Shown here: positions 6,886 through 37,492 of the stretch, one piece after another
Layout of the letters: every line of letters starts with the position of its first letter
How positions within the stretch are numbered: position 1 is the first letter of the stretch
Assembly: GCF_001677475.2 (NCBI RefSeq)
Contig: NZ_CP015229.1
Strand: one strand, 5' to 3'
From: Escherichia coli
GTDB lineage: Bacteria > Pseudomonadota > Gammaproteobacteria > Enterobacterales > Enterobacteriaceae
Length of the DNA: 64,000 nucleotides
Made by a program: the position numbers and the translations under genes
The notes under the pieces: generated by a model
Told to the model about the DNA's origin: nothing
Database searches by the model: none
What the model saw: the letters and a program-made list of their open reading frames with translations, nothing else

Positions 6886-8058
6886 TTATCGGTTTCTGTC
6901 AGCGATTAAATTCAACACCACGTAACAAACGCCTCCGGCAATTAAACCCCAAAACGCAGAACCAATCCCGACCAGTGTCAATCCACTTGCCGTTACCAGA
7001 AATGCCACCACCGCCGCGTCGCGCTCACGCTCATTATGCAGCGCCTGATACAAACTGCCGCCAATGGTACTTAACAGCGCCAGACCTGCCAGCATCTGGA
7101 TCCAACTTACGGGCAGGGCAGCCATCATCCCGGTAATGGCACTACCAAACAGACCTGCGAGCAAATAGAAAATGCCGGCAACGGCAGCTGCCAGCCAACG
7201 TTGATCTTTATCCGGATGCGCTTCCGGGCTTTGGCAAATAGCCGCGGTGATTGCCGCAATACCGACGGAATAAACGCCGAAAGGGGAAAAAACCAGTGCC
7301 AGCAATCCAGTAAATACAATTAATGGCGAAACAGGAGCTGAATATCCGGCTGCTTTCATTGCTGCGATACCCGGTGCGTTTTGCGATGCCATCGTCACCA
7401 GAAAAAGGGGGAGTGCAACGCTCAGGCTGTGAGCAAACGAAAAATCAGGGGTAATATAAGTGGGGAGAACGGGTTTAAAGACAATATCAGTTGTGACAAC
7501 GTCACCTTGCGCGATAACGATCACGATCCCAATAATCATCGCGGCAATTACCGCATAGCGCGGCGCAACGGCCCTGGTTGCCAGCCATACCAGCAACATA
7601 CTGCCACACAACGTAAATTGACCATCCAGACTGGCAAACGCCTGTAAACCAAAGCGTAATAAAATCCCGGCAAGCATTGCCGCCGCAAGCGAGTGTGGAA
7701 TAATGCGCATCAGACGAGCAAAGAGTCCCGTTATGCCGCAGAGGACTATTAACGCGTTGGTGACAATAAAAACGCCGATGGCTTCGTTAAGTGTTAGTCC
7801 CTGCAATCCGGTGACCAACAAAGCCGCGCCAGGCGTTGACCATGCGGTGAGAACAGGTACGCGATACCATAATGTCAGAGTCAGCGTACTGACGCCCATT
7901 GCCAGCCCCAGCGCCGTCATCCAGCCAGAGATTTGTGCAGTGGTGGCTCCGGCGACAATCGCTGCTTGCCAGATTATTGCCGCTGAACTGGCGTAGCCAA
8001 TTAATACCGCCAGAAACCCCGCCAGTAGCGTGGGTGGAGGAATAGAAAACAGACGCAT
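6886..8058 (-). CDS. ydcO: BenE-family inner membrane transporter YdcO
   Basis: 390 aa from ATG (complement of 8056-8058), N-terminus MRLFSIPPPTLLAGF; the 477-aa track ORF includes an upstream extension. Confidence 0.85.
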   Translation of the reverse strand: MRLFSIPPPTLLAGFLAVLIGYASSAAIIWQAAIVAGATTAQISGWMTALGLAMGVSTLTLTLWYRVPVLTAWSTPGAALLVTGLQGLTLNEAIGVFIVTNALIVLCGITGLFARLMRIIPHSLAAAMLAGILLRFGLQAFASLDGQFTLCGSMLLVWLATRAVAPRYAVIAAMIIGIVIVIAQGDVVTTDIVFKPVLPTYITPDFSFAHSLSVALPLFLVTMASQNAPGIAAMKAAGYSAPVSPLIVFTGLLALVFSPFGVYSVGIAAITAAICQSPEAHPDKDQRWLAAAVAGIFYLLAGLFGSAITGMMAALPVSWIQMLAGLALLSTIGGSLYQALHNERERDAAVVAFLVTASGLTLVGIGSAFWGLIAGGVCYVVLNLIADRNR

Positions 8059-8758: not shown

Positions 8759-10720
8759 GTGACCGTATCTTCTCATCGACTTGAACTGTTAAGCCCGGCA
8801 CGCGATGCCGCCATTGCCCGCGAAGCTATTTTGCACGGTGCCGATGCTGTTTATATCGGCGGCCCTGGTTTTGGTGCCCGTCATAATGCCAGTAATAGCC
8901 TGAAAGATATTGCCGAGCTGGTGCCGTTTGCCCATCGTTATGGTGCAAAAATTTTCGTCACGCTTAACACCATTCTGCATGATGATGAGCTTGAACCCGC
9001 GCAACGGCTGATTACCGACCTCTACCAGACCGGCGTCGATGCGCTGATTGTTCAGGATATGGGGATTCTGGAACTTGATATTCCGCCGATTGAACTGCAC
9101 GCCAGTACGCAGTGCGACATTCGCACGGTAGAGAAAGCGAAGTTCCTTTCTGATGTTGGCTTCACGCAGATTGTGCTGGCACGAGAGCTGAATCTTGAGC
9201 AGATCCGCGCGATTCACCAGGCCACGGACGCGACCATTGAATTCTTTATTCATGGCGCACTGTGCGTGGCCTATTCGGGTCAGTGCTACATTTCTCATGC
9301 GCAAACAGGGCGTAGCGCCAACCGTGGCGATTGCTCGCAGGCGTGCCGTTTGCCATACACATTGAAAGACGATCAGGGGCGGGTGGTTTCCTATGAAAAA
9401 CATCTGCTGTCGATGAAAGATAACGATCAGACTGCCAACCTCGGCGCGCTGATTGATGCTGGCGTACGCTCCTTCAAGATTGAAGGGCGTTACAAAGATA
9501 TGAGCTACGTGAAGAATATCACCGCCCATTATCGCCAGATGCTGGATGCCATTATTGAAGAACGTAGCGATTTGGCGCGAGCTTCATCCGGTCGTACTGA
9601 GCACTTCTTCGTACCGTCGACGGAAAAAACCTTCCATCGTGGCAGCACCGACTACTTTGTTAACGCGCGTAAAGGCGATATTGGCGCATTCGATTCACCG
9701 AAATTTATCGGCCTGCCGGTGGGTGAAGTATTGAAAGTGGCGAAAGATCATCTTGATGTTGAGGTTACCGAACCGCTGGCTAACGGCGATGGACTGAACG
9801 TAATGATTAAGCGTGAAGTCGTCGGCTTTCGTGCCAACACGGTAGAGAAAACTGGGGAAAATCAGTACCGCGTCTGGCCAAATGAGATGCCAGTGGAGCT
9901 GCACAAAATTCGCCCGCACCATCCGCTTAATCGCAACCTCGACCATAACTGGCAGCAGGCGTTGACCAAAACCTCCAGCGAACGTCGGGTGGCGGTAGAC
10001 ATTGAACTGGGCGGCTGGCAGGAACAACTGATTCTGACTCTGACCAGCGAAGAGGGCGTCAGTATCACTCATACGCTGGACGGGCAGTTCGACGAAGCGA
10101 ATAACGCCGAAAAAGCACTCCTCAATCTGAAAGAGGGATTGTCGAAGCTTGGGCAAACCCTCTATTACGCCCGCGATGTGCAAATTAATTTGCCGGGGGC
10201 GCTGTTTGTACCAAACAGTCTGTTAAACCAGTTCCGCCGTGAAGCTGCCGACATGCTGGATGCTGCACGTCTTGCCAGTTACCAGCGGGGCAGCCGTAAA
10301 CCGGTTGCTGATCCTGCGCCGGTTTATCCGCAAACGCATCTGAGTTTCCTCGCGAACGTATACAACCAGAAAGCGCGTGAATTTTATCATCGCTATGGTG
10401 TGCAGCTGATTGACGCGGCGTATGAGGCACATGAAGAGAAGGGCGAAGTCCCGGTGATGATCACCAAGCATTGTCTGCGCTTTGCCTTTAATCTGTGCCC
10501 GAAACAGGCGAAAGGCAATATCAAAAGCTGGAAGGCGACGCCAATGCAACTGGTTAACGGCGATGAAGTGTTAACGCTGAAATTTGATTGCCGCCCATGC
10601 GAGATGCACGTCATTGGCAAAATCAAAAATCACATACTGAAAATGCCGTTACCGGGAAGCGTAGTGGCATCCGTAAGTCCGGATGAGCTGCTGAAAACAT
10701 TGCCGAAGCGAAAAGGGTAA
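8759..10720 (+). CDS. rlhA: Peptidase U32 family protein RlhA/YdcP (23S rRNA C2501 hydroxylation)
   Basis: 653 aa if initiated at GTG 8759, the recalled YdcP length; the track ORF begins at 8717; U32 family by sequence recall. Confidence 0.85.
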   Translation: MTVSSHRLELLSPARDAAIAREAILHGADAVYIGGPGFGARHNASNSLKDIAELVPFAHRYGAKIFVTLNTILHDDELEPAQRLITDLYQTGVDALIVQDMGILELDIPPIELHASTQCDIRTVEKAKFLSDVGFTQIVLARELNLEQIRAIHQATDATIEFFIHGALCVAYSGQCYISHAQTGRSANRGDCSQACRLPYTLKDDQGRVVSYEKHLLSMKDNDQTANLGALIDAGVRSFKIEGRYKDMSYVKNITAHYRQMLDAIIEERSDLARASSGRTEHFFVPSTEKTFHRGSTDYFVNARKGDIGAFDSPKFIGLPVGEVLKVAKDHLDVEVTEPLANGDGLNVMIKREVVGFRANTVEKTGENQYRVWPNEMPVELHKIRPHHPLNRNLDHNWQQALTKTSSERRVAVDIELGGWQEQLILTLTSEEGVSITHTLDGQFDEANNAEKALLNLKEGLSKLGQTLYYARDVQINLPGALFVPNSLLNQFRREAADMLDAARLASYQRGSRKPVADPAPVYPQTHLSFLANVYNQKAREFYHRYGVQLIDAAYEAHEEKGEVPVMITKHCLRFAFNLCPKQAKGNIKSWKATPMQLVNGDEVLTLKFDCRPCEMHVIGKIKNHILKMPLPGSVVASVSPDELLKTLPKRKG

Positions 10721-16750: not shown

Positions 16751-17534
16751 ACGCGCACCGTTTTTCCTCAAACTGGCGGCCTGGGGCGGCGTTGTTTTCC
16801 TACATTTTCCCATCCTGATAATCGCCGCCTATGCGTTTAACACTGAAGATGCGGCGTTTAGTTTTCCACCGCAGGGCCTGACGCTGCGCTGGTTTAGCGT
16901 GGCAGCACAGCGTAGTGATATTCTTGATGCCGTGACACTGTCACTTAAAGTGGCGGCGCTGGCGACATTAATGGCGCTGGTGTTAGGGACGCTGGCAGCT
17001 GCCGCGCTGTGGCGACGAGACTTTTTCGGCAAAAACGCCATTTCGCTGTTACTGCTGCTGCCCATTGCGCTGCCGGGCATTGTCACTGGTCTGGCGTTAT
17101 TAACCGCCTTTAAAACCATCAATCTGGAGCCGGGATTTTTCACCATCGTGGTCGGTCATGCGACTTTTTGTGTAGTTGTGGTGTTTAACAATGTCATCGC
17201 CCGTTTTCGCCGCACCTCGTGGAGTCTGGTTGAGGCGTCAATGGATCTTGGGGCCAATGGCTGGCAAACCTTCCGCTACGTAGTGTTGCCGAATCTTAGT
17301 TCGGCGTTACTGGCAGGAGGAATGCTGGCGTTTGCCTTGTCGTTCGATGAAATCATCGTTACGACTTTTACGGCAGGTCATGAACGAACGTTACCGTTGT
17401 GGTTGCTCAATCAGCTTGGGCGACCGCGTGATGTACCGGTAACCAACGTGGTGGCACTGCTGGTTATGTTGGTAACAACCTTGCCGATCCTGGGGGCCTG
17501 GTGGCTAACCCGCGAAGGCGACAATGGTCAATAA
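16740..17534 (+). CDS. ydcV: ABC transporter permease YdcV
   Basis: 264 aa polytopic membrane protein; overlaps ydcU stop. Confidence 0.88.
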
Positions 17535-17555
17535 CCACTGATACAGGAATATGCT

Positions 17556-18980
17556 ATGCAACATAAGTTACTGATTAACGGAGAACTGGTCAGCGGCGAA
17601 GGGGAAAAACAGCCTGTCTATAATCCGGCAACGGGGGACGTTTTACTGGAGATTGCCGAGGCATCCGCAGAGCAGGTCGATGCTGCTGTGCGCGCGGCAG
17701 ATGCAGCATTTGCCGAATGGGGGCAAACCACGCCGAAAGTGCGTGCGGAATGCCTGCTGAAACTGGCTGATGTTATCGAAGAAAATGGTCAGGTTTTTGC
17801 CGAACTGGAGTCCCGTAATTGTGGCAAACCGCTGCATAGTGCGTTCAATGATGAAATTCCGGCGATTGTCGATGTCTTTCGCTTTTTCGCCGGAGCAGCT
17901 CGCTGCCTGCATGGTCTGGCGGCAGGTGAATATCTTGAAGGTCATACTTCGATGATCCGTCGCGATCCGTTGGGGGTCGTGGCTTCTATCGCACCGTGGA
18001 ATTATCCGCTGATGATGGCTGCGTGGAAACTGGCTCCGGCGCTGGCGGCAGGGAACTGCGTAGTGCTCAAACCATCAGAAATTACCCCGCTGACCGCGTT
18101 GAAGTTGGCAGAGCTGGCGAAAGATATCTTCCCGGCAGGCGTGATTAACGTACTGTTTGGCAGAGGCAAAACGGTGGGAGATCCGCTGACCGGACATCCC
18201 AAAGTGCGGATGGTGTCGCTGACGGGCTCTATCGCCACTGGCGAGCACATCATCAGCCATACCGCGCCGTCCATAAAGCGTACTCATATGGAACTTGGAG
18301 GCAAAGCGCCAGTGATAGTTTTTGATGATGCGGATATTGAAGCGGTGGTCGAAGGTGTACGTACTTTTGGCTATTACAATGCCGGACAGGATTGTACAGC
18401 GGCTTGTCGGATCTATGCGCAAAAAGCCATTTACGATACGCTGGTGGAAAAACTTGGTGCTGCAGTGGCAACGTTAAAATCGGGTGCACCGGATGACGAG
18501 TCTACGGAGCTTGGACCTTTAAGCTCGCTGGCGCATCTCGAACGCGTCAGCAAAGCGGTAGAAGAGGCGAAAGCGACAGGGCACATCAAAGTGATCACTG
18601 GCGGTGAAAAGCGCAAGGGTAATGGCTATTACTATGCGCCGACGCTACTGGCTGGCGCATTACAGGACGATGCCATCGTGCAAAAAGAGGTATTTGGTCC
18701 GGTAGTGAGTGTTACCCTCTTCGACAACGAAGAACAGGTGGTGAACTGGGCAAATGACAGCCAGTACGGACTTGCATCCTCGGTATGGACGAAAGATGTG
18801 GGCAGGGCGCATCGCGTCAGCTCGCGGCTGCAATATGGTTGTACCTGGGTCAATACCCATTTCATGCTGGTAAGTGAAATGCCGCACGGTGGGCAGAAAC
18901 TTTCTGGTTACGGCAAGGATATGTCACTTTATGGGCTGGAGGATTACACCGTCGTCCGCCACGTCATGGTTAAACATTAA
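17556..18980 (+). CDS. patD: Gamma-aminobutyraldehyde dehydrogenase (aldehyde dehydrogenase family)
   Basis: 474 aa; aldehyde dehydrogenase motifs ELGGKAP and catalytic cysteine region; K-12 synteny. Confidence 0.92.
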
Positions 18981-19076
18981 GGATAATATTGCAGATCGTA
19001 AGAGTATGAGAAGATCTTGCGTACTGTCAGAGAGTTGATTTCTCTGACAGTACGTGTTGCGTGCAAAATCACTACA

Positions 19077-19172
19077 TCAAATAAACCAGCCAAATCTCAT
19101 AGAGATAAGAGTAAACAAACCAACAGCAGCAAAGACATTTATCAGTACTACAGTTCTACTGGAAACATTCAT
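19077..19172 (-). CDS. yncL: Small membrane protein YncL
   Basis: 31-aa ORF read from the reverse strand (MNVSSRTVVLINVFAAVGLFTLISMRFGWFI); single hydrophobic helix; absent from ORF track (too short). Confidence 0.7.
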   Translation of the reverse strand: MNVSSRTVVLINVFAAVGLFTLISMRFGWFI

Positions 19173-19366
19173 TTTTGCCACCTTTTATCATTGCCCCTAT
19201 GTGTATAGTACGGGTTAAGAAAATCCGCAATAATACTCATTCTGAAGATGGATAAGGGCAAGTTGCTGTTTGATGATTTTTTCTCAAACCGGTTAAAAAA
19301 CTTGATGTACATCAAAAAATGACGCATATTTGCGCGCGTTTTATTCATCTGGCTGGACGCCCGTAC

Positions 19367-19540
19367 ATGTCTTTCTATCAACACATGCTTGTTTTTTATG
19401 CGGTTATGGCAGCAATCGCATTTCTTATCACCTGGTTTCTTTCTCACGATAAGAAACGCATCCGTTTCTTAAGCGCCTTTCTGGTGGGGGCAACATGGCC
19501 GATGAGTTTCCCGGTGGCGCTGTTGTTTTCACTGTTTTAA
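19367..19540 (+). CDS. ortT: Orphan toxin OrtT (YdcX), small membrane protein
   Basis: 57 aa from ATG 19367 (MSFYQHMLVFYAVMAAIAFLITWF...); the track ORF has a 16-codon extension. Confidence 0.8.
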   Translation: MSFYQHMLVFYAVMAAIAFLITWFLSHDKKRIRFLSAFLVGATWPMSFPVALLFSLF

Positions 19541-19625
19541 ATCTTATGCATTGGCTTGACGGCACCACGCAGACTTATATCATTTGGATGAATCGATAAA
19601 TTTCACAAGTGGCTAAGGAGAAAGT

Positions 19626-19859
19626 ATGTCGCATCTGGATGAAGTCATCGCGCGCGTGGATGCCGCGATTGAAGAGAGCGTCATTGCCCATATGAACGAA
19701 TTATTAATCGCCCTGAGCGATGACGCGGAGTTAAGTCGGGAAGATCGCTACACCCAGCAGCAGCGTTTGCGCACCGCTATTGCTCATCACGGTCGCAAGC
19801 ATAAAGAAGATATGGAAGCGCGCCACGAACAGTTAACCAAAGGCGGCACCATCCTCTGA
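19626..19859 (+). CDS. ydcY: Small protein YdcY
   Basis: 77 aa; K-12 synteny. Confidence 0.8.
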   Translation: MSHLDEVIARVDAAIEESVIAHMNELLIALSDDAELSREDRYTQQQRLRTAIAHHGRKHKEDMEARHEQLTKGGTIL

Positions 19860-20309
19860 TTAAAATGAGCGTCTGGCCACCAACCAGGCGCCAACCACAA
19901 GTAAAATTGCGCCACAAATTGGTCCGAACAACGCCCGTAGTGGTACGCCATGACTGCGGAAGATATCCAGAACCAGACCGCCAATCAGCTGGCTGGCGAC
20001 CAGTACTGCAATAGTTGTCGCCGCTCCCACATTCTGATATCCGCTGATACTAGCGAAGACAAAAAACGAACCCAGCAAGCCAGGTATAAGTGTCCACCAG
20101 CGCACGCTGGACACCAGTTCGCCAAACCCCGCCATGCCTTGTTTAAACCATAAAATAGAAACAAAGAGCACAATCCCCACCAGTGAGTTCAGCAACATGG
20201 CGATGAGAATGGTAGAGGAGGTCTGGGTGATGCGCACCATAAGCGTGTTCTGGATTACCAGACCAATTCCGGCGGCAATCAAAAAAGCAAGGGTGAGCGA
20301 CTGATTCAT
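19860..20309 (-). CDS. ydcZ: DMT-superfamily inner membrane protein YdcZ
   Basis: 149 aa, four hydrophobic segments. Confidence 0.8.
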   Translation of the reverse strand: MNQSLTLAFLIAAGIGLVIQNTLMVRITQTSSTILIAMLLNSLVGIVLFVSILWFKQGMAGFGELVSSVRWWTLIPGLLGSFFVFASISGYQNVGAATTIAVLVASQLIGGLVLDIFRSHGVPLRALFGPICGAILLVVGAWLVARRSF

Positions 20310-20824
20310 CCAATCGTGTCCGGTTCAGTGCGCTCGTCGAGTTGCAACTGCATAAATGTCAGATCCAGCCAACGACCAAATTTAGTGCCTACCTGCGGCA
20401 TTTGTGCGGTGACGACAAATCCCAGCGACTGGTGCAGATGCAGCGAGGCCTGATTTTGCGATTCGATCCCGGCGATCATGACATGCTTCCCGCAATCTCG
20501 CGCTTCATCAATCAATCGGCTTAACAATTTACGCCCCAGGCCTTTGCCCTGATGATCGGGATGGACATAAACCGAATGCTCCACGGTATGGCGAAAACCA
20601 TCGAAACTACGCCAGTCGCCAAATGAGGCATATCCCGTCACTACGCCATCTTCTTCACTTACCAGCACCGGATAACCTGCTATGGTCCGCGCTTCAAACC
20701 AGGCAATGCGGTTATCTGCATCCACCGTTTGGTCATTCCAGATAGCCGCCGTATACAACACGGCGTGGTTATAAATTTCCGCAATGGCAGCACAGTCGGC
20801 TTTGCGGGCAAAACGGATGGACAT
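20306..20824 (-). CDS. mnaT: L-amino acid N-acyltransferase MnaT (GNAT)
   Basis: 172 aa from ATG (complement of 20822-20824); GNAT motif QGKGLGRKLL; track ORF extension rejected. Confidence 0.88.
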   Translation of the reverse strand: MSIRFARKADCAAIAEIYNHAVLYTAAIWNDQTVDADNRIAWFEARTIAGYPVLVSEEDGVVTGYASFGDWRSFDGFRHTVEHSVYVHPDHQGKGLGRKLLSRLIDEARDCGKHVMIAGIESQNQASLHLHQSLGFVVTAQMPQVGTKFGRWLDLTFMQLQLDERTEPDTIG

Positions 20825-21004
20825 GTCTGGCCTCAATAAAATAATGATGATGATGTTATCAATACTATCGAAAACAGCCCGAAGCAACGGATTCCTCGAT
20901 GAAATTATTGCGTGTTGCAGAGGGGATGTGACGGCTACAAACAAAACCAATCCCGTGAGCCTGCTACTATTGATGGATTCATGCCAAAAGCACAGGAGAG
21001 CATT

Positions 21005-22042
21005 ATGGGGCAACAAAAGCAGCGTAATCGACGTTGGGTTCTGGCCTCGCGTCCACATGGCGCACCGGTTCCGGAGAATTTCCGTCTTGAAGAAGATGAT
21101 GTCGCCACACCGGGTGAAGGACAGGTGTTACTGCGCACAGTTTATTTGTCCCTGGACCCGTATATGCGTGGACGTATGAGCGATGAGCCATCTTATTCAC
21201 CGCCGGTTGATATTGGCGGCGTGATGGTCGGCGGTACGGTGAGCCGTGTCGTGGAGTCGAATCATCCTGATTATCAGCCTGGCGACTGGGTGCTGGGCTA
21301 CAGTGGATGGCAGGACTATGACATATCCAGTGGTGATGATCTGATGAAACTTGGCGATCATCCGCAAAATCCATCGTGGTCGCTGGGTGTGCTGGGGATG
21401 CCAGGCTTTACCGCTTATATGGGGCTGCTGGATATCGGTCAACCTAAAGAGGGCGAAACATTGGTGGTTGCTGCGGCAACCGGCCCAGTGGGAGCAACGG
21501 TGGGGCAAATCGGCAAACTTAAAGGTTGCAGGGTGGTGGGTGTTGCCGGTGGCGCGGAAAAATGCCGCCATGCTACCGAGGTGTTAGGCTTTGATGTTTG
21601 TCTTGACCATCACGCGGATGATTTTGCCGAACAACTGGCGAAAGCGTGCCCAAAAGGTATTGATATCTATTATGAAAACGTGGGCGGTAAGGTATTCGAT
21701 GCGGTGCTACCGTTACTTAATACATCTGCGCGCATTCCCGTTTGTGGCTTAGTGAGCAGCTATAACGCTACAGAGCTACCACCCGGTCCGGATCGATTAC
21801 CTTTGTTGATGGCTACGGTGCTGAAAAAACGTATTCGCTTGCAAGGATTTATTATCGCTCAGGATTATGGTCACCGCATCCATGAGTTTCAGAAGGAGAT
21901 GGGGCAATGGGTGAAAGAGGATAAAATCCACTACCGCGAAGAAATTACTGACGGTTTAGAGAATGCGCCACAGACGTTTATCGGCCTTCTGAAGGGTAAA
22001 AACTTCGGCAAAGTGGTGATCCGCGTGGCGGATGATGATTAA
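21005..22042 (+). CDS. curA: NADPH-dependent curcumin/dihydrocurcumin reductase (MDR family)
   Basis: 345 aa from ATG 21005 with GGAGAG Shine-Dalgarno; Rossmann motif AAATGPVGATVGQ. Confidence 0.9.
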   Translation: MGQQKQRNRRWVLASRPHGAPVPENFRLEEDDVATPGEGQVLLRTVYLSLDPYMRGRMSDEPSYSPPVDIGGVMVGGTVSRVVESNHPDYQPGDWVLGYSGWQDYDISSGDDLMKLGDHPQNPSWSLGVLGMPGFTAYMGLLDIGQPKEGETLVVAAATGPVGATVGQIGKLKGCRVVGVAGGAEKCRHATEVLGFDVCLDHHADDFAEQLAKACPKGIDIYYENVGGKVFDAVLPLLNTSARIPVCGLVSSYNATELPPGPDRLPLLMATVLKKRIRLQGFIIAQDYGHRIHEFQKEMGQWVKEDKIHYREEITDGLENAPQTFIGLLKGKNFGKVVIRVADDD

Positions 22043-27945: not shown

Positions 27946-28295
27946 TGCTCTCCCTGATTGCTTTAATGAAAAAGTCATATAAGTTGCCATGAACAATGTT
28001 TATTCATCCTGGCGATGACAAGATTCACCATTATTCTTTATGGGTATAACTGTCGGCGCAGAATCCTACCTTTTATCGTGTAACGATGCAAAATAATCCC
28101 GCTATAAATATGAGGGGATAAAGGCGGCCGGCAACAAAATAGCAACCTGATGAAATTTTGACGGAAACAACCACTATTGGTTTGATGATGCCCGACGGCA
28201 GTCCTACTCTTGCGCCACTCGTTCGTCGCTCTGAACGCCAGTGGTTGCAGTGGACACTGGCGTGGTTGGCTCATTGAATAGTGAGGTGCTAGCAC

Positions 28296-37046: not shown

Positions 37047-37492
37047 AACAGATGAAAGAGCAGGATTTATTCGAAGACCTTCGGGACGACAGCGTTCTGG
37101 AATATCTTCATGATTACCAGGAAAACACCGCTTATCCGGCGTTACTTTCTGAACTGAACGCACTGCTGCGTAAAGAGCTGGCCCGGATTGGCGCAGACCC
37201 TGCTCATTCCCTTGAGCTGGTTGTGGCGATTTGTCGCCATATCGGCGGGATGCAGGTTTATGTTCCGAGGGGGAATATTCTGGAGAATCTTGTCCGGGAT
37301 ATGCGTATCTGGCGTGATTTTAACGGTCATAATATTCCTGAACTGGTTCAGCGTTACGGGGTGACGTATAAAACCGTCTACAAGGCCATCAAACGGATGC
37401 GACGTCTGGAGCGCAATAAATACCAGCCGGATTTGTTTTACCCCTCCCCGAACCTGCCTCACCCCGTTCGTCGTCCACCACGACGCCCTTAA
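37043..37492 (+). CDS. mor: Mor transcription activator (Mor/C family)
   Basis: 149 aa; sequence closely matches recalled Mu Mor (DLFEDLRDDSVLEYL, VVAICRHIGGMQVYVPRG, YKAIKRMRRL). Confidence 0.88.
   Translation: MKQMKEQDLFEDLRDDSVLEYLHDYQENTAYPALLSELNALLRKELARIGADPAHSLELVVAICRHIGGMQVYVPRGNILENLVRDMRIWRDFNGHNIPELVQRYGVTYKTVYKAIKRMRRLERNKYQPDLFYPSPNLPHPVRRPPRRP

Follow-up and report, generated by a model that had tools for sequence, protein, structure and literature searches.

YncL of Escherichia coli K-12, a 31-residue protein of the inner membrane, belongs to a group of small membrane proteins that are induced by stress and whose native role is under debate. Expression of yncL is reported to rise in heat shock, in minimal medium and in stationary phase (PMC12542507, as cited there from Hemm et al. 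2008 and 2010). Plasmid-driven production of either protein in exponential phase raised DiBAC4(3) fluorescence, indicating depolarisation, and condensed the nucleoid in 50-60% of cells; production of either protein also sensitised cells to magainin-2 and pleurocidin, while the control membrane proteins MtlA and YqjD, likewise overproduced, had no such effects (PMC12542507). Cells producing YncL showed lower viability and sublethal depolarisation, and not the killing of a classic toxin (PMC12542507). Tagged YncL undergoes RseP-dependent cleavage in vivo, also with chromosomally encoded RseP, and cleavage in vitro by purified RseP was not reproducible (PMC10470546). Translation of yncL has been shown for K-12 (PMC12542507, PMC10470546). 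The described Salmonella orthologue, STnc1110/STM14_1932, is sigma-S dependent, and there only a lacZ fusion was detected, the tagged YncL protein remaining undetected (PMC5437024).

An earlier note on the present DNA, made from the letters alone, had read a counterpart of this gene on the minus strand between patD and ortT, as a 31-codon ORF encoding a single hydrophobic helix. It had named alignment with K-12 yncL as the check, and a difference at most positions as the outcome that would speak against it. We followed this up across the window, by which we mean the entire 64,000-nt stretch of E. coli DNA that was analysed. The features assigned to the locus are the following.

19077-19172, minus strand: yncL coding sequence, based on the translation, the match to K-12 b4598, NCBIfam NF000537 and the codon-position pattern
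19178-19184, minus strand: Shine-Dalgarno sequence AAGGTGG, 5 nt before the yncL ATG, based on sequence and conservation
19202-19230, minus strand: candidate yncL promoter, with -35 TTGCGG at 19230-19225, a 17-nt spacer, -10 TATACA at 19207-19202 and a C at 19208
19020-19054, no strand assigned: perfect inverted repeat with a stem of 13-16 bp, between the converging stop codons of yncL and patD

The minus strand of 19077-19172 begins ATG AAT GTT and ends ATT TGA, and translation of the window gives MNVSSRTVVLINVFAAVGLFTLISMRFGWFI*, that is, 31 codons from ATG plus a TGA stop, as the earlier note had read it. The ORF is flanked by patD on one side (17556-18980, plus strand, an ORF for a 474-aa aldehyde dehydrogenase) and by ortT on the other (19367-19540, plus strand; the ORF lister extended the ortT start to 19319, with the ORF end at 19540), which bears out the proposed position. 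The surrounding gene order is that of K-12: patD, yncL, ortT, ydcY, ydcZ and mnaT. Strain Combat11I9 also has yncL convergent with patD and divergent from ortT. In K-12 MG1655, yncL (b4598, YP_001165318.1, UniProt YNCL_ECOLI) occupies 1517099-1517194 on the minus strand between patD and ortT, and is the same gene with the same neighbours and orientation. The alignment showed identity at 95 of 96 nt and 30 of 31 residues, far from a difference at most positions, and the proposed equivalence with K-12 YncL stands. The single change, F13 in K-12 to V13 in the window, is a conservative substitution inside the transmembrane helix, and the region upstream of yncL is identical between the two from -1 to about -125.

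The window protein is 100% identical to WP_001303494.1, ‘stress response membrane protein YncL’ of strain Combat11I9, and the V13 and F13 alleles each occur on at least 1000 public contigs, where they are named YncL. The NCBIfam equivalog model NF000537 (YncL) matched over all of its 30 positions, with a score of 72.5 bits (curated cutoff 35) and E = 1.8e-20. No model in the Pfam-A copy used matched YncL or its orthologues, even at E ≤ 10; PF28073:YncL, from newer Pfam releases, is tagged on orthologous contigs in precomputed annotation. Of 5426 complete E. coli genomes, 5415 carry the 701-bp region around the ORF, annotated as patD/yncL/ortT, with 95-99% identity to the window. For its 156-bp core, which comprises yncL and its promoter, identity reaches 99% or more in 5300 of 5412 E. 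coli records. The NF000537 score, near-identity to K-12, size with one helix, synteny and coding constraint all place the product in the YncL family. We consider it virtually certain that the feature is the chromosomal yncL of E. coli in its common V13 allele; nothing in the evidence contradicted this identification, and we hold it to be the best overall explanation of the feature with scarcely less assurance. The gene and its place are already known and the allele is a common one, and the identification brings nothing new. Its main value is correct annotation, as 31-codon genes are routinely lost to ORF-length filters and naming yncL keeps the 386-bp gap between patD and ortT from looking empty; the conserved pairing with ortT, discussed below, is the only forward-looking point.

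The start codon was assigned by comparison with 11 orthologues from Escherichia, Intestinirhabdus, Pluralibacter and a Raoultella/Klebsiella-type contig. In the mechanical ORF list the yncL frame appears as a 34-aa ORF from an upstream GTG (19077-19181), but the GTG taken by the lister as an alternative start sits inside the Shine-Dalgarno sequence AAGGTGG. All 11 orthologues have a purine-rich GG(A/T)GG at a constant distance from the ATG. The in-frame GTG, by contrast, is replaced by GAG in Pluralibacter and is out of frame in the Raoultella/Klebsiella-type contig. Because the Shine-Dalgarno sequence is kept and the upstream in-frame GTG is lost in distant orthologues, we took the ATG at 19172 as the start of yncL and rejected the 34-aa alternative from 19181. 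[quoted passage not shown]

Length alone does not distinguish this ORF, as the six frames of the window contain 231 ATG-initiated ORFs of 25-45 aa and one of yncL length is within chance. Three of the 231 have a 19-residue stretch as hydrophobic as that of yncL, and among these window ORFs only yncL has a strong Shine-Dalgarno sequence (AAGGTGG). The yncL ORF stands above chance because of its identity with K-12 yncL, the NCBIfam match and purifying selection across genera. Strongly hydrophobic 19-residue stretches also occur in two short ATG-initiated ORFs on the plus strand, at 8805-8903 (32 aa) and 37260-37364 (34 aa); no recognisable Shine-Dalgarno sequence precedes either, and both have probably arisen by chance, inside larger genes or antisense to them.

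The predicted protein of 31 aa (GRAVY 1.39) consists of a short polar N-terminus (MNVSSR), one transmembrane helix at about T7-M25 and an aromatic, conserved C-terminal tail (RFGWFI). T7-M25 forms one stretch of 19 residues with a mean Kyte-Doolittle value of 2.22, in agreement with the single hydrophobic helix proposed before. When 1.84 billion representative proteins were searched exhaustively with phmmer, only nine matched, all of them YncL-like, which indicates a narrow family; named members are known from Escherichia and Shigella, Pluralibacter, [Enterobacter] lignolyticus, Raoultella and Klebsiella aerogenes. A degenerate DNA pattern encoding LIN-(12 codons)-[MV]RFGW was also run against species-representative genomes and gave 24 matches, nine of them enterobacterial, including E. 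coli (two records), E. albertii, E. whittamii, two further Escherichia species, Intestinirhabdus alba and a Pluralibacter metagenome-assembled genome. About 15 of the 24, in unrelated phyla (Saccharibacteria, Treponema and others), were dropped as chance matches, with about 13 expected from the degeneracy of the pattern. Salmonella gave no match, so at least one of those codons must be different in its orthologue. One YncL-like sequence rich in F substitutions, present only in Logan read assemblies, was left out since it looks error-prone.

Residues are best kept at the N-terminus (M-[ND]-VSS-[RK]-TV), in L-I-N at positions 10-12 and in the C-terminal S-[MV]-RFGW, while the helix core is variable yet hydrophobic (LLLAIALLWLL vs. 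VFAAVGLFTLI) and position 13 varies between V, F and L within Escherichia. Variable sites in the 11 orthologous coding sequences were distributed 14/5/23 over codon positions 1/2/3. Nonsynonymous differences were proportionally fewer than synonymous ones (pN/pS) between the window and Intestinirhabdus (0.073/0.56), Pluralibacter (0.19/0.80) and the Raoultella/Klebsiella-type orthologue (0.22/0.69). As judged from these sequence comparisons, yncL evolves like a translated gene that is subject to purifying selection.

Upstream of the gene, we identified a candidate sigma-S-type promoter about 23 nt from the ATG, with transcription predicted, rather than mapped, to start at about 19195. A C immediately before the -10 element, as at 19208, is typical of sigma-S promoters, and all 11 orthologues have CTATA (19208-19204) unchanged. 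The sigma-S reading agrees with an RpoS genomic-SELEX peak in the yncL/ydcX spacer (PMC5493296) and with the requirement of Salmonella yncL-lacZ for sigma-S (PMC5437024). A scan for consensus promoters and terminators returned nothing relevant up- or downstream of yncL, and the candidate promoter was missed because the last base of its -10 element is A and not T. Assignment of the promoter, and of the hairpin downstream of yncL, therefore rests on conservation, since the -10 ends in A and the hairpin is without a T-run.

The spacer between yncL and ortT also contains TTGATGTACATCAA at 19302-19315, a perfect match to the FNR consensus TTGAT-N4-ATCAA and the only one in the 64 kb, against 0.16 expected by chance. 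The box is kept as TTGA-N6-TCAA in Escherichia, Intestinirhabdus and Pluralibacter, deviates from the consensus by one mismatch in K-12 and by none in the window, and corresponds to the known ChIP-chip FNR target ‘ydcX’ (PMC1802558). The 46 bp around it are identical to the window in only 6 of 5413 E. coli records, marking a rare allele, and this piece of spacer just upstream has 90-95% identity in most E. coli genomes. Beside the FNR box, the consensus scan flagged a weak terminator-like hairpin, ACGCGCGCAAATATGCGT, followed by a T-run (19322-19339, minus strand). It lies upstream of yncL within the leader/promoter region of ortT, is kept within Escherichia, and probably either belongs to the ortT control region or matches by chance.

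On the other side of yncL, the perfect inverted repeat at 19020-19054 lacks a clear U-tract, whichever strand is read. Its folding energy on the yncL strand is -30.1 kcal/mol (z = -5.4), and the patD strand folds as well (z = -3.5). Across eight Escherichia lineages, 4 of 15 stem pairs have changed on both sides with pairing kept, and 95.8% of stem cells are paired, compared to 22-50% with a slid partner; the observed covariation score was reached by none of 500 shuffles. Relative to K-12, three loop nucleotides differ and the window stem gains one base pair. Distant orthologues have different hairpins after the yncL stop, one of them a classical GC stem with a T-run. These comparisons suggest that the repeat is probably a 3′-end or terminator hairpin shared by yncL and patD. 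The yncL mRNA would most likely be monocistronic, about 175 nt long, running from the sigma-S-type promoter to this hairpin. The patD-yncL pair is listed by ExcludonFinder as a convergent transcriptional overlap (PMC12288877), and read-through from patD could give such an overlap antisense to yncL.

Beyond the locus, the window departs from K-12 at several places. The IS609 copy found in K-12 between ydcL and ydcO (insQ and the yncK pseudogene, K-12 1503161-1504908) is precisely absent at 6886/6887. Collinearity with the K-12 ydc/ync region stops at 28119, in the ansP-yncG spacer, and a Mu-like transposable prophage encoding a transposase, a DUF935 portal-like protein, a large terminase, a tail sheath and a tape measure protein starts at about 29006. 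Its best match was 96% to E. coli STEC383, and a 25-kb query from the prophage region was covered to at least 80% in only 39 of 5426 genomes.

With the mechanism taken from the K-12 literature, YncL would build up in the inner membrane on heat shock, in minimal medium and in stationary phase, and at sufficient levels would partly dissipate the membrane potential or proton-motive force. Depolarisation would then lower protein synthesis, induce a phage-shock response and condense the nucleoid, effects that together would push cells to a metabolically quiet, low-activity state. The intramembrane protease RseP would be the likely route of removal, and the V13 allele is expected to behave like the K-12 F13 allele. 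We found no loss-of-function phenotype for yncL in the literature, the discovery papers being known to us second-hand, and we give even chances to sublethal depolarisation being the native function of YncL as opposed to an effect of overproduction.

Many characterised E. coli small membrane proteins are partners of larger proteins, and YncL might similarly bind and tune one specific larger membrane protein, like AcrZ, MgtS and CydX, with depolarisation as a side effect of overproduction. We regard this main alternative as unlikely, if far from negligible: the conserved S-[MV]-R-F-G-W at the C-terminus, kept across genera while the helix core varies, would fit a contact surface, and depolarisation has been shown with plasmid expression only (PMC12542507), but no specific partner was found reported in the YncL literature. 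Moreover, the lack of the effect with overproduced MtlA and YqjD, as well as the authors’ estimate that levels of YohP, and likely of YncL, were not greatly above native stationary-phase levels, argue against a general consequence of overproduction (PMC12542507). It is far less credible that the locus acts mainly as a regulatory RNA in which the ORF is incidental, even though the Salmonella orthologue was first catalogued as the non-coding sRNA STnc1110 (PMC5437024) and the yncL transcript was recovered by RIL-seq as an Hfq-associated partner of the sRNA KilS (PMC8175672). The codon substitution pattern, with pN far below pS, essentially excludes an RNA-only function; the Shine-Dalgarno sequence and ATG are kept, and translational fusions and tagged proteins have been expressed (PMC12542507, PMC10470546, PMC5437024). 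Searches against Rfam, which cover described families only, gave no match at E ≤ 1 in 17000-21500 and none at gathering score in the whole window. The yncL transcript may nevertheless serve both as an mRNA and as the target of an sRNA.

Another reading concerns the neighbouring gene, and holds that yncL and the orphan toxin gene ortT constitute one divergent module in which YncL is the missing modulator, antagonist or co-effector of OrtT, expressed from a shared sigma-S/FNR-responsive spacer. The divergent pair is kept in Escherichia, Intestinirhabdus alba, the Pluralibacter metagenome-assembled genome and Raoultella/Klebsiella-type contigs, despite different outer neighbours: outside Escherichia, the place of ydcY is taken by an alpha/beta hydrolase, and an additional small ORF separates yncL from the aldehyde dehydrogenase gene. 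YncL and OrtT are both small membrane proteins for which damage to the membrane or its depolarisation has been reported (PMC12542507, PMC4344625), and the spacer contains both the RpoS SELEX peak (PMC5493296) and the ChIP-verified FNR site (PMC1802558). The OrtT study tried the intergenic RNA next to yncL only, and not the YncL protein (PMC4344625). However, a genomic-library screen for OrtT antitoxins was described in that study, which named OrtT an orphan toxin (PMC4344625), and adjacency in related Enterobacteriaceae can be plain inherited synteny. We found no experiment that links YncL with OrtT, and no discussion of their pairing across genera, in the literature on yncL and ortT, and we consider such a module improbable.

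Among characterised proteins, YohP (27 aa, E. coli) is of the same class as YncL and shares with it depolarisation, nucleoid condensation and sensitisation to magainin-2 (PMC12542507). Both are induced by sigma-S or in stationary phase (PMC12542507, PMC5437024), although YohP is encoded at another locus and is induced by low oxygen and not by heat (PMC12542507). The exhaustive phmmer search, which gave only YncL-like sequences, found no sequence relationship between the two, and YncL had no similarity to PF10753 proteins. Compared to the type I systems Hok, Ldr and Ibs, we know of no dedicated antitoxin for yncL, and the Rfam searches detected no described antisense RNA family. Hok proteins share the protease RseP with YncL (PMC10470546). 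GhoT/OrtT and Hok-type toxins resemble YncL in being short inner-membrane peptides with one or two helices that lower the membrane potential, and OrtT is its immediate divergent neighbour. YncL is not described as a toxin with an antitoxin and, unlike GhoT, OrtT and Hok, causes a sublethal depolarisation.
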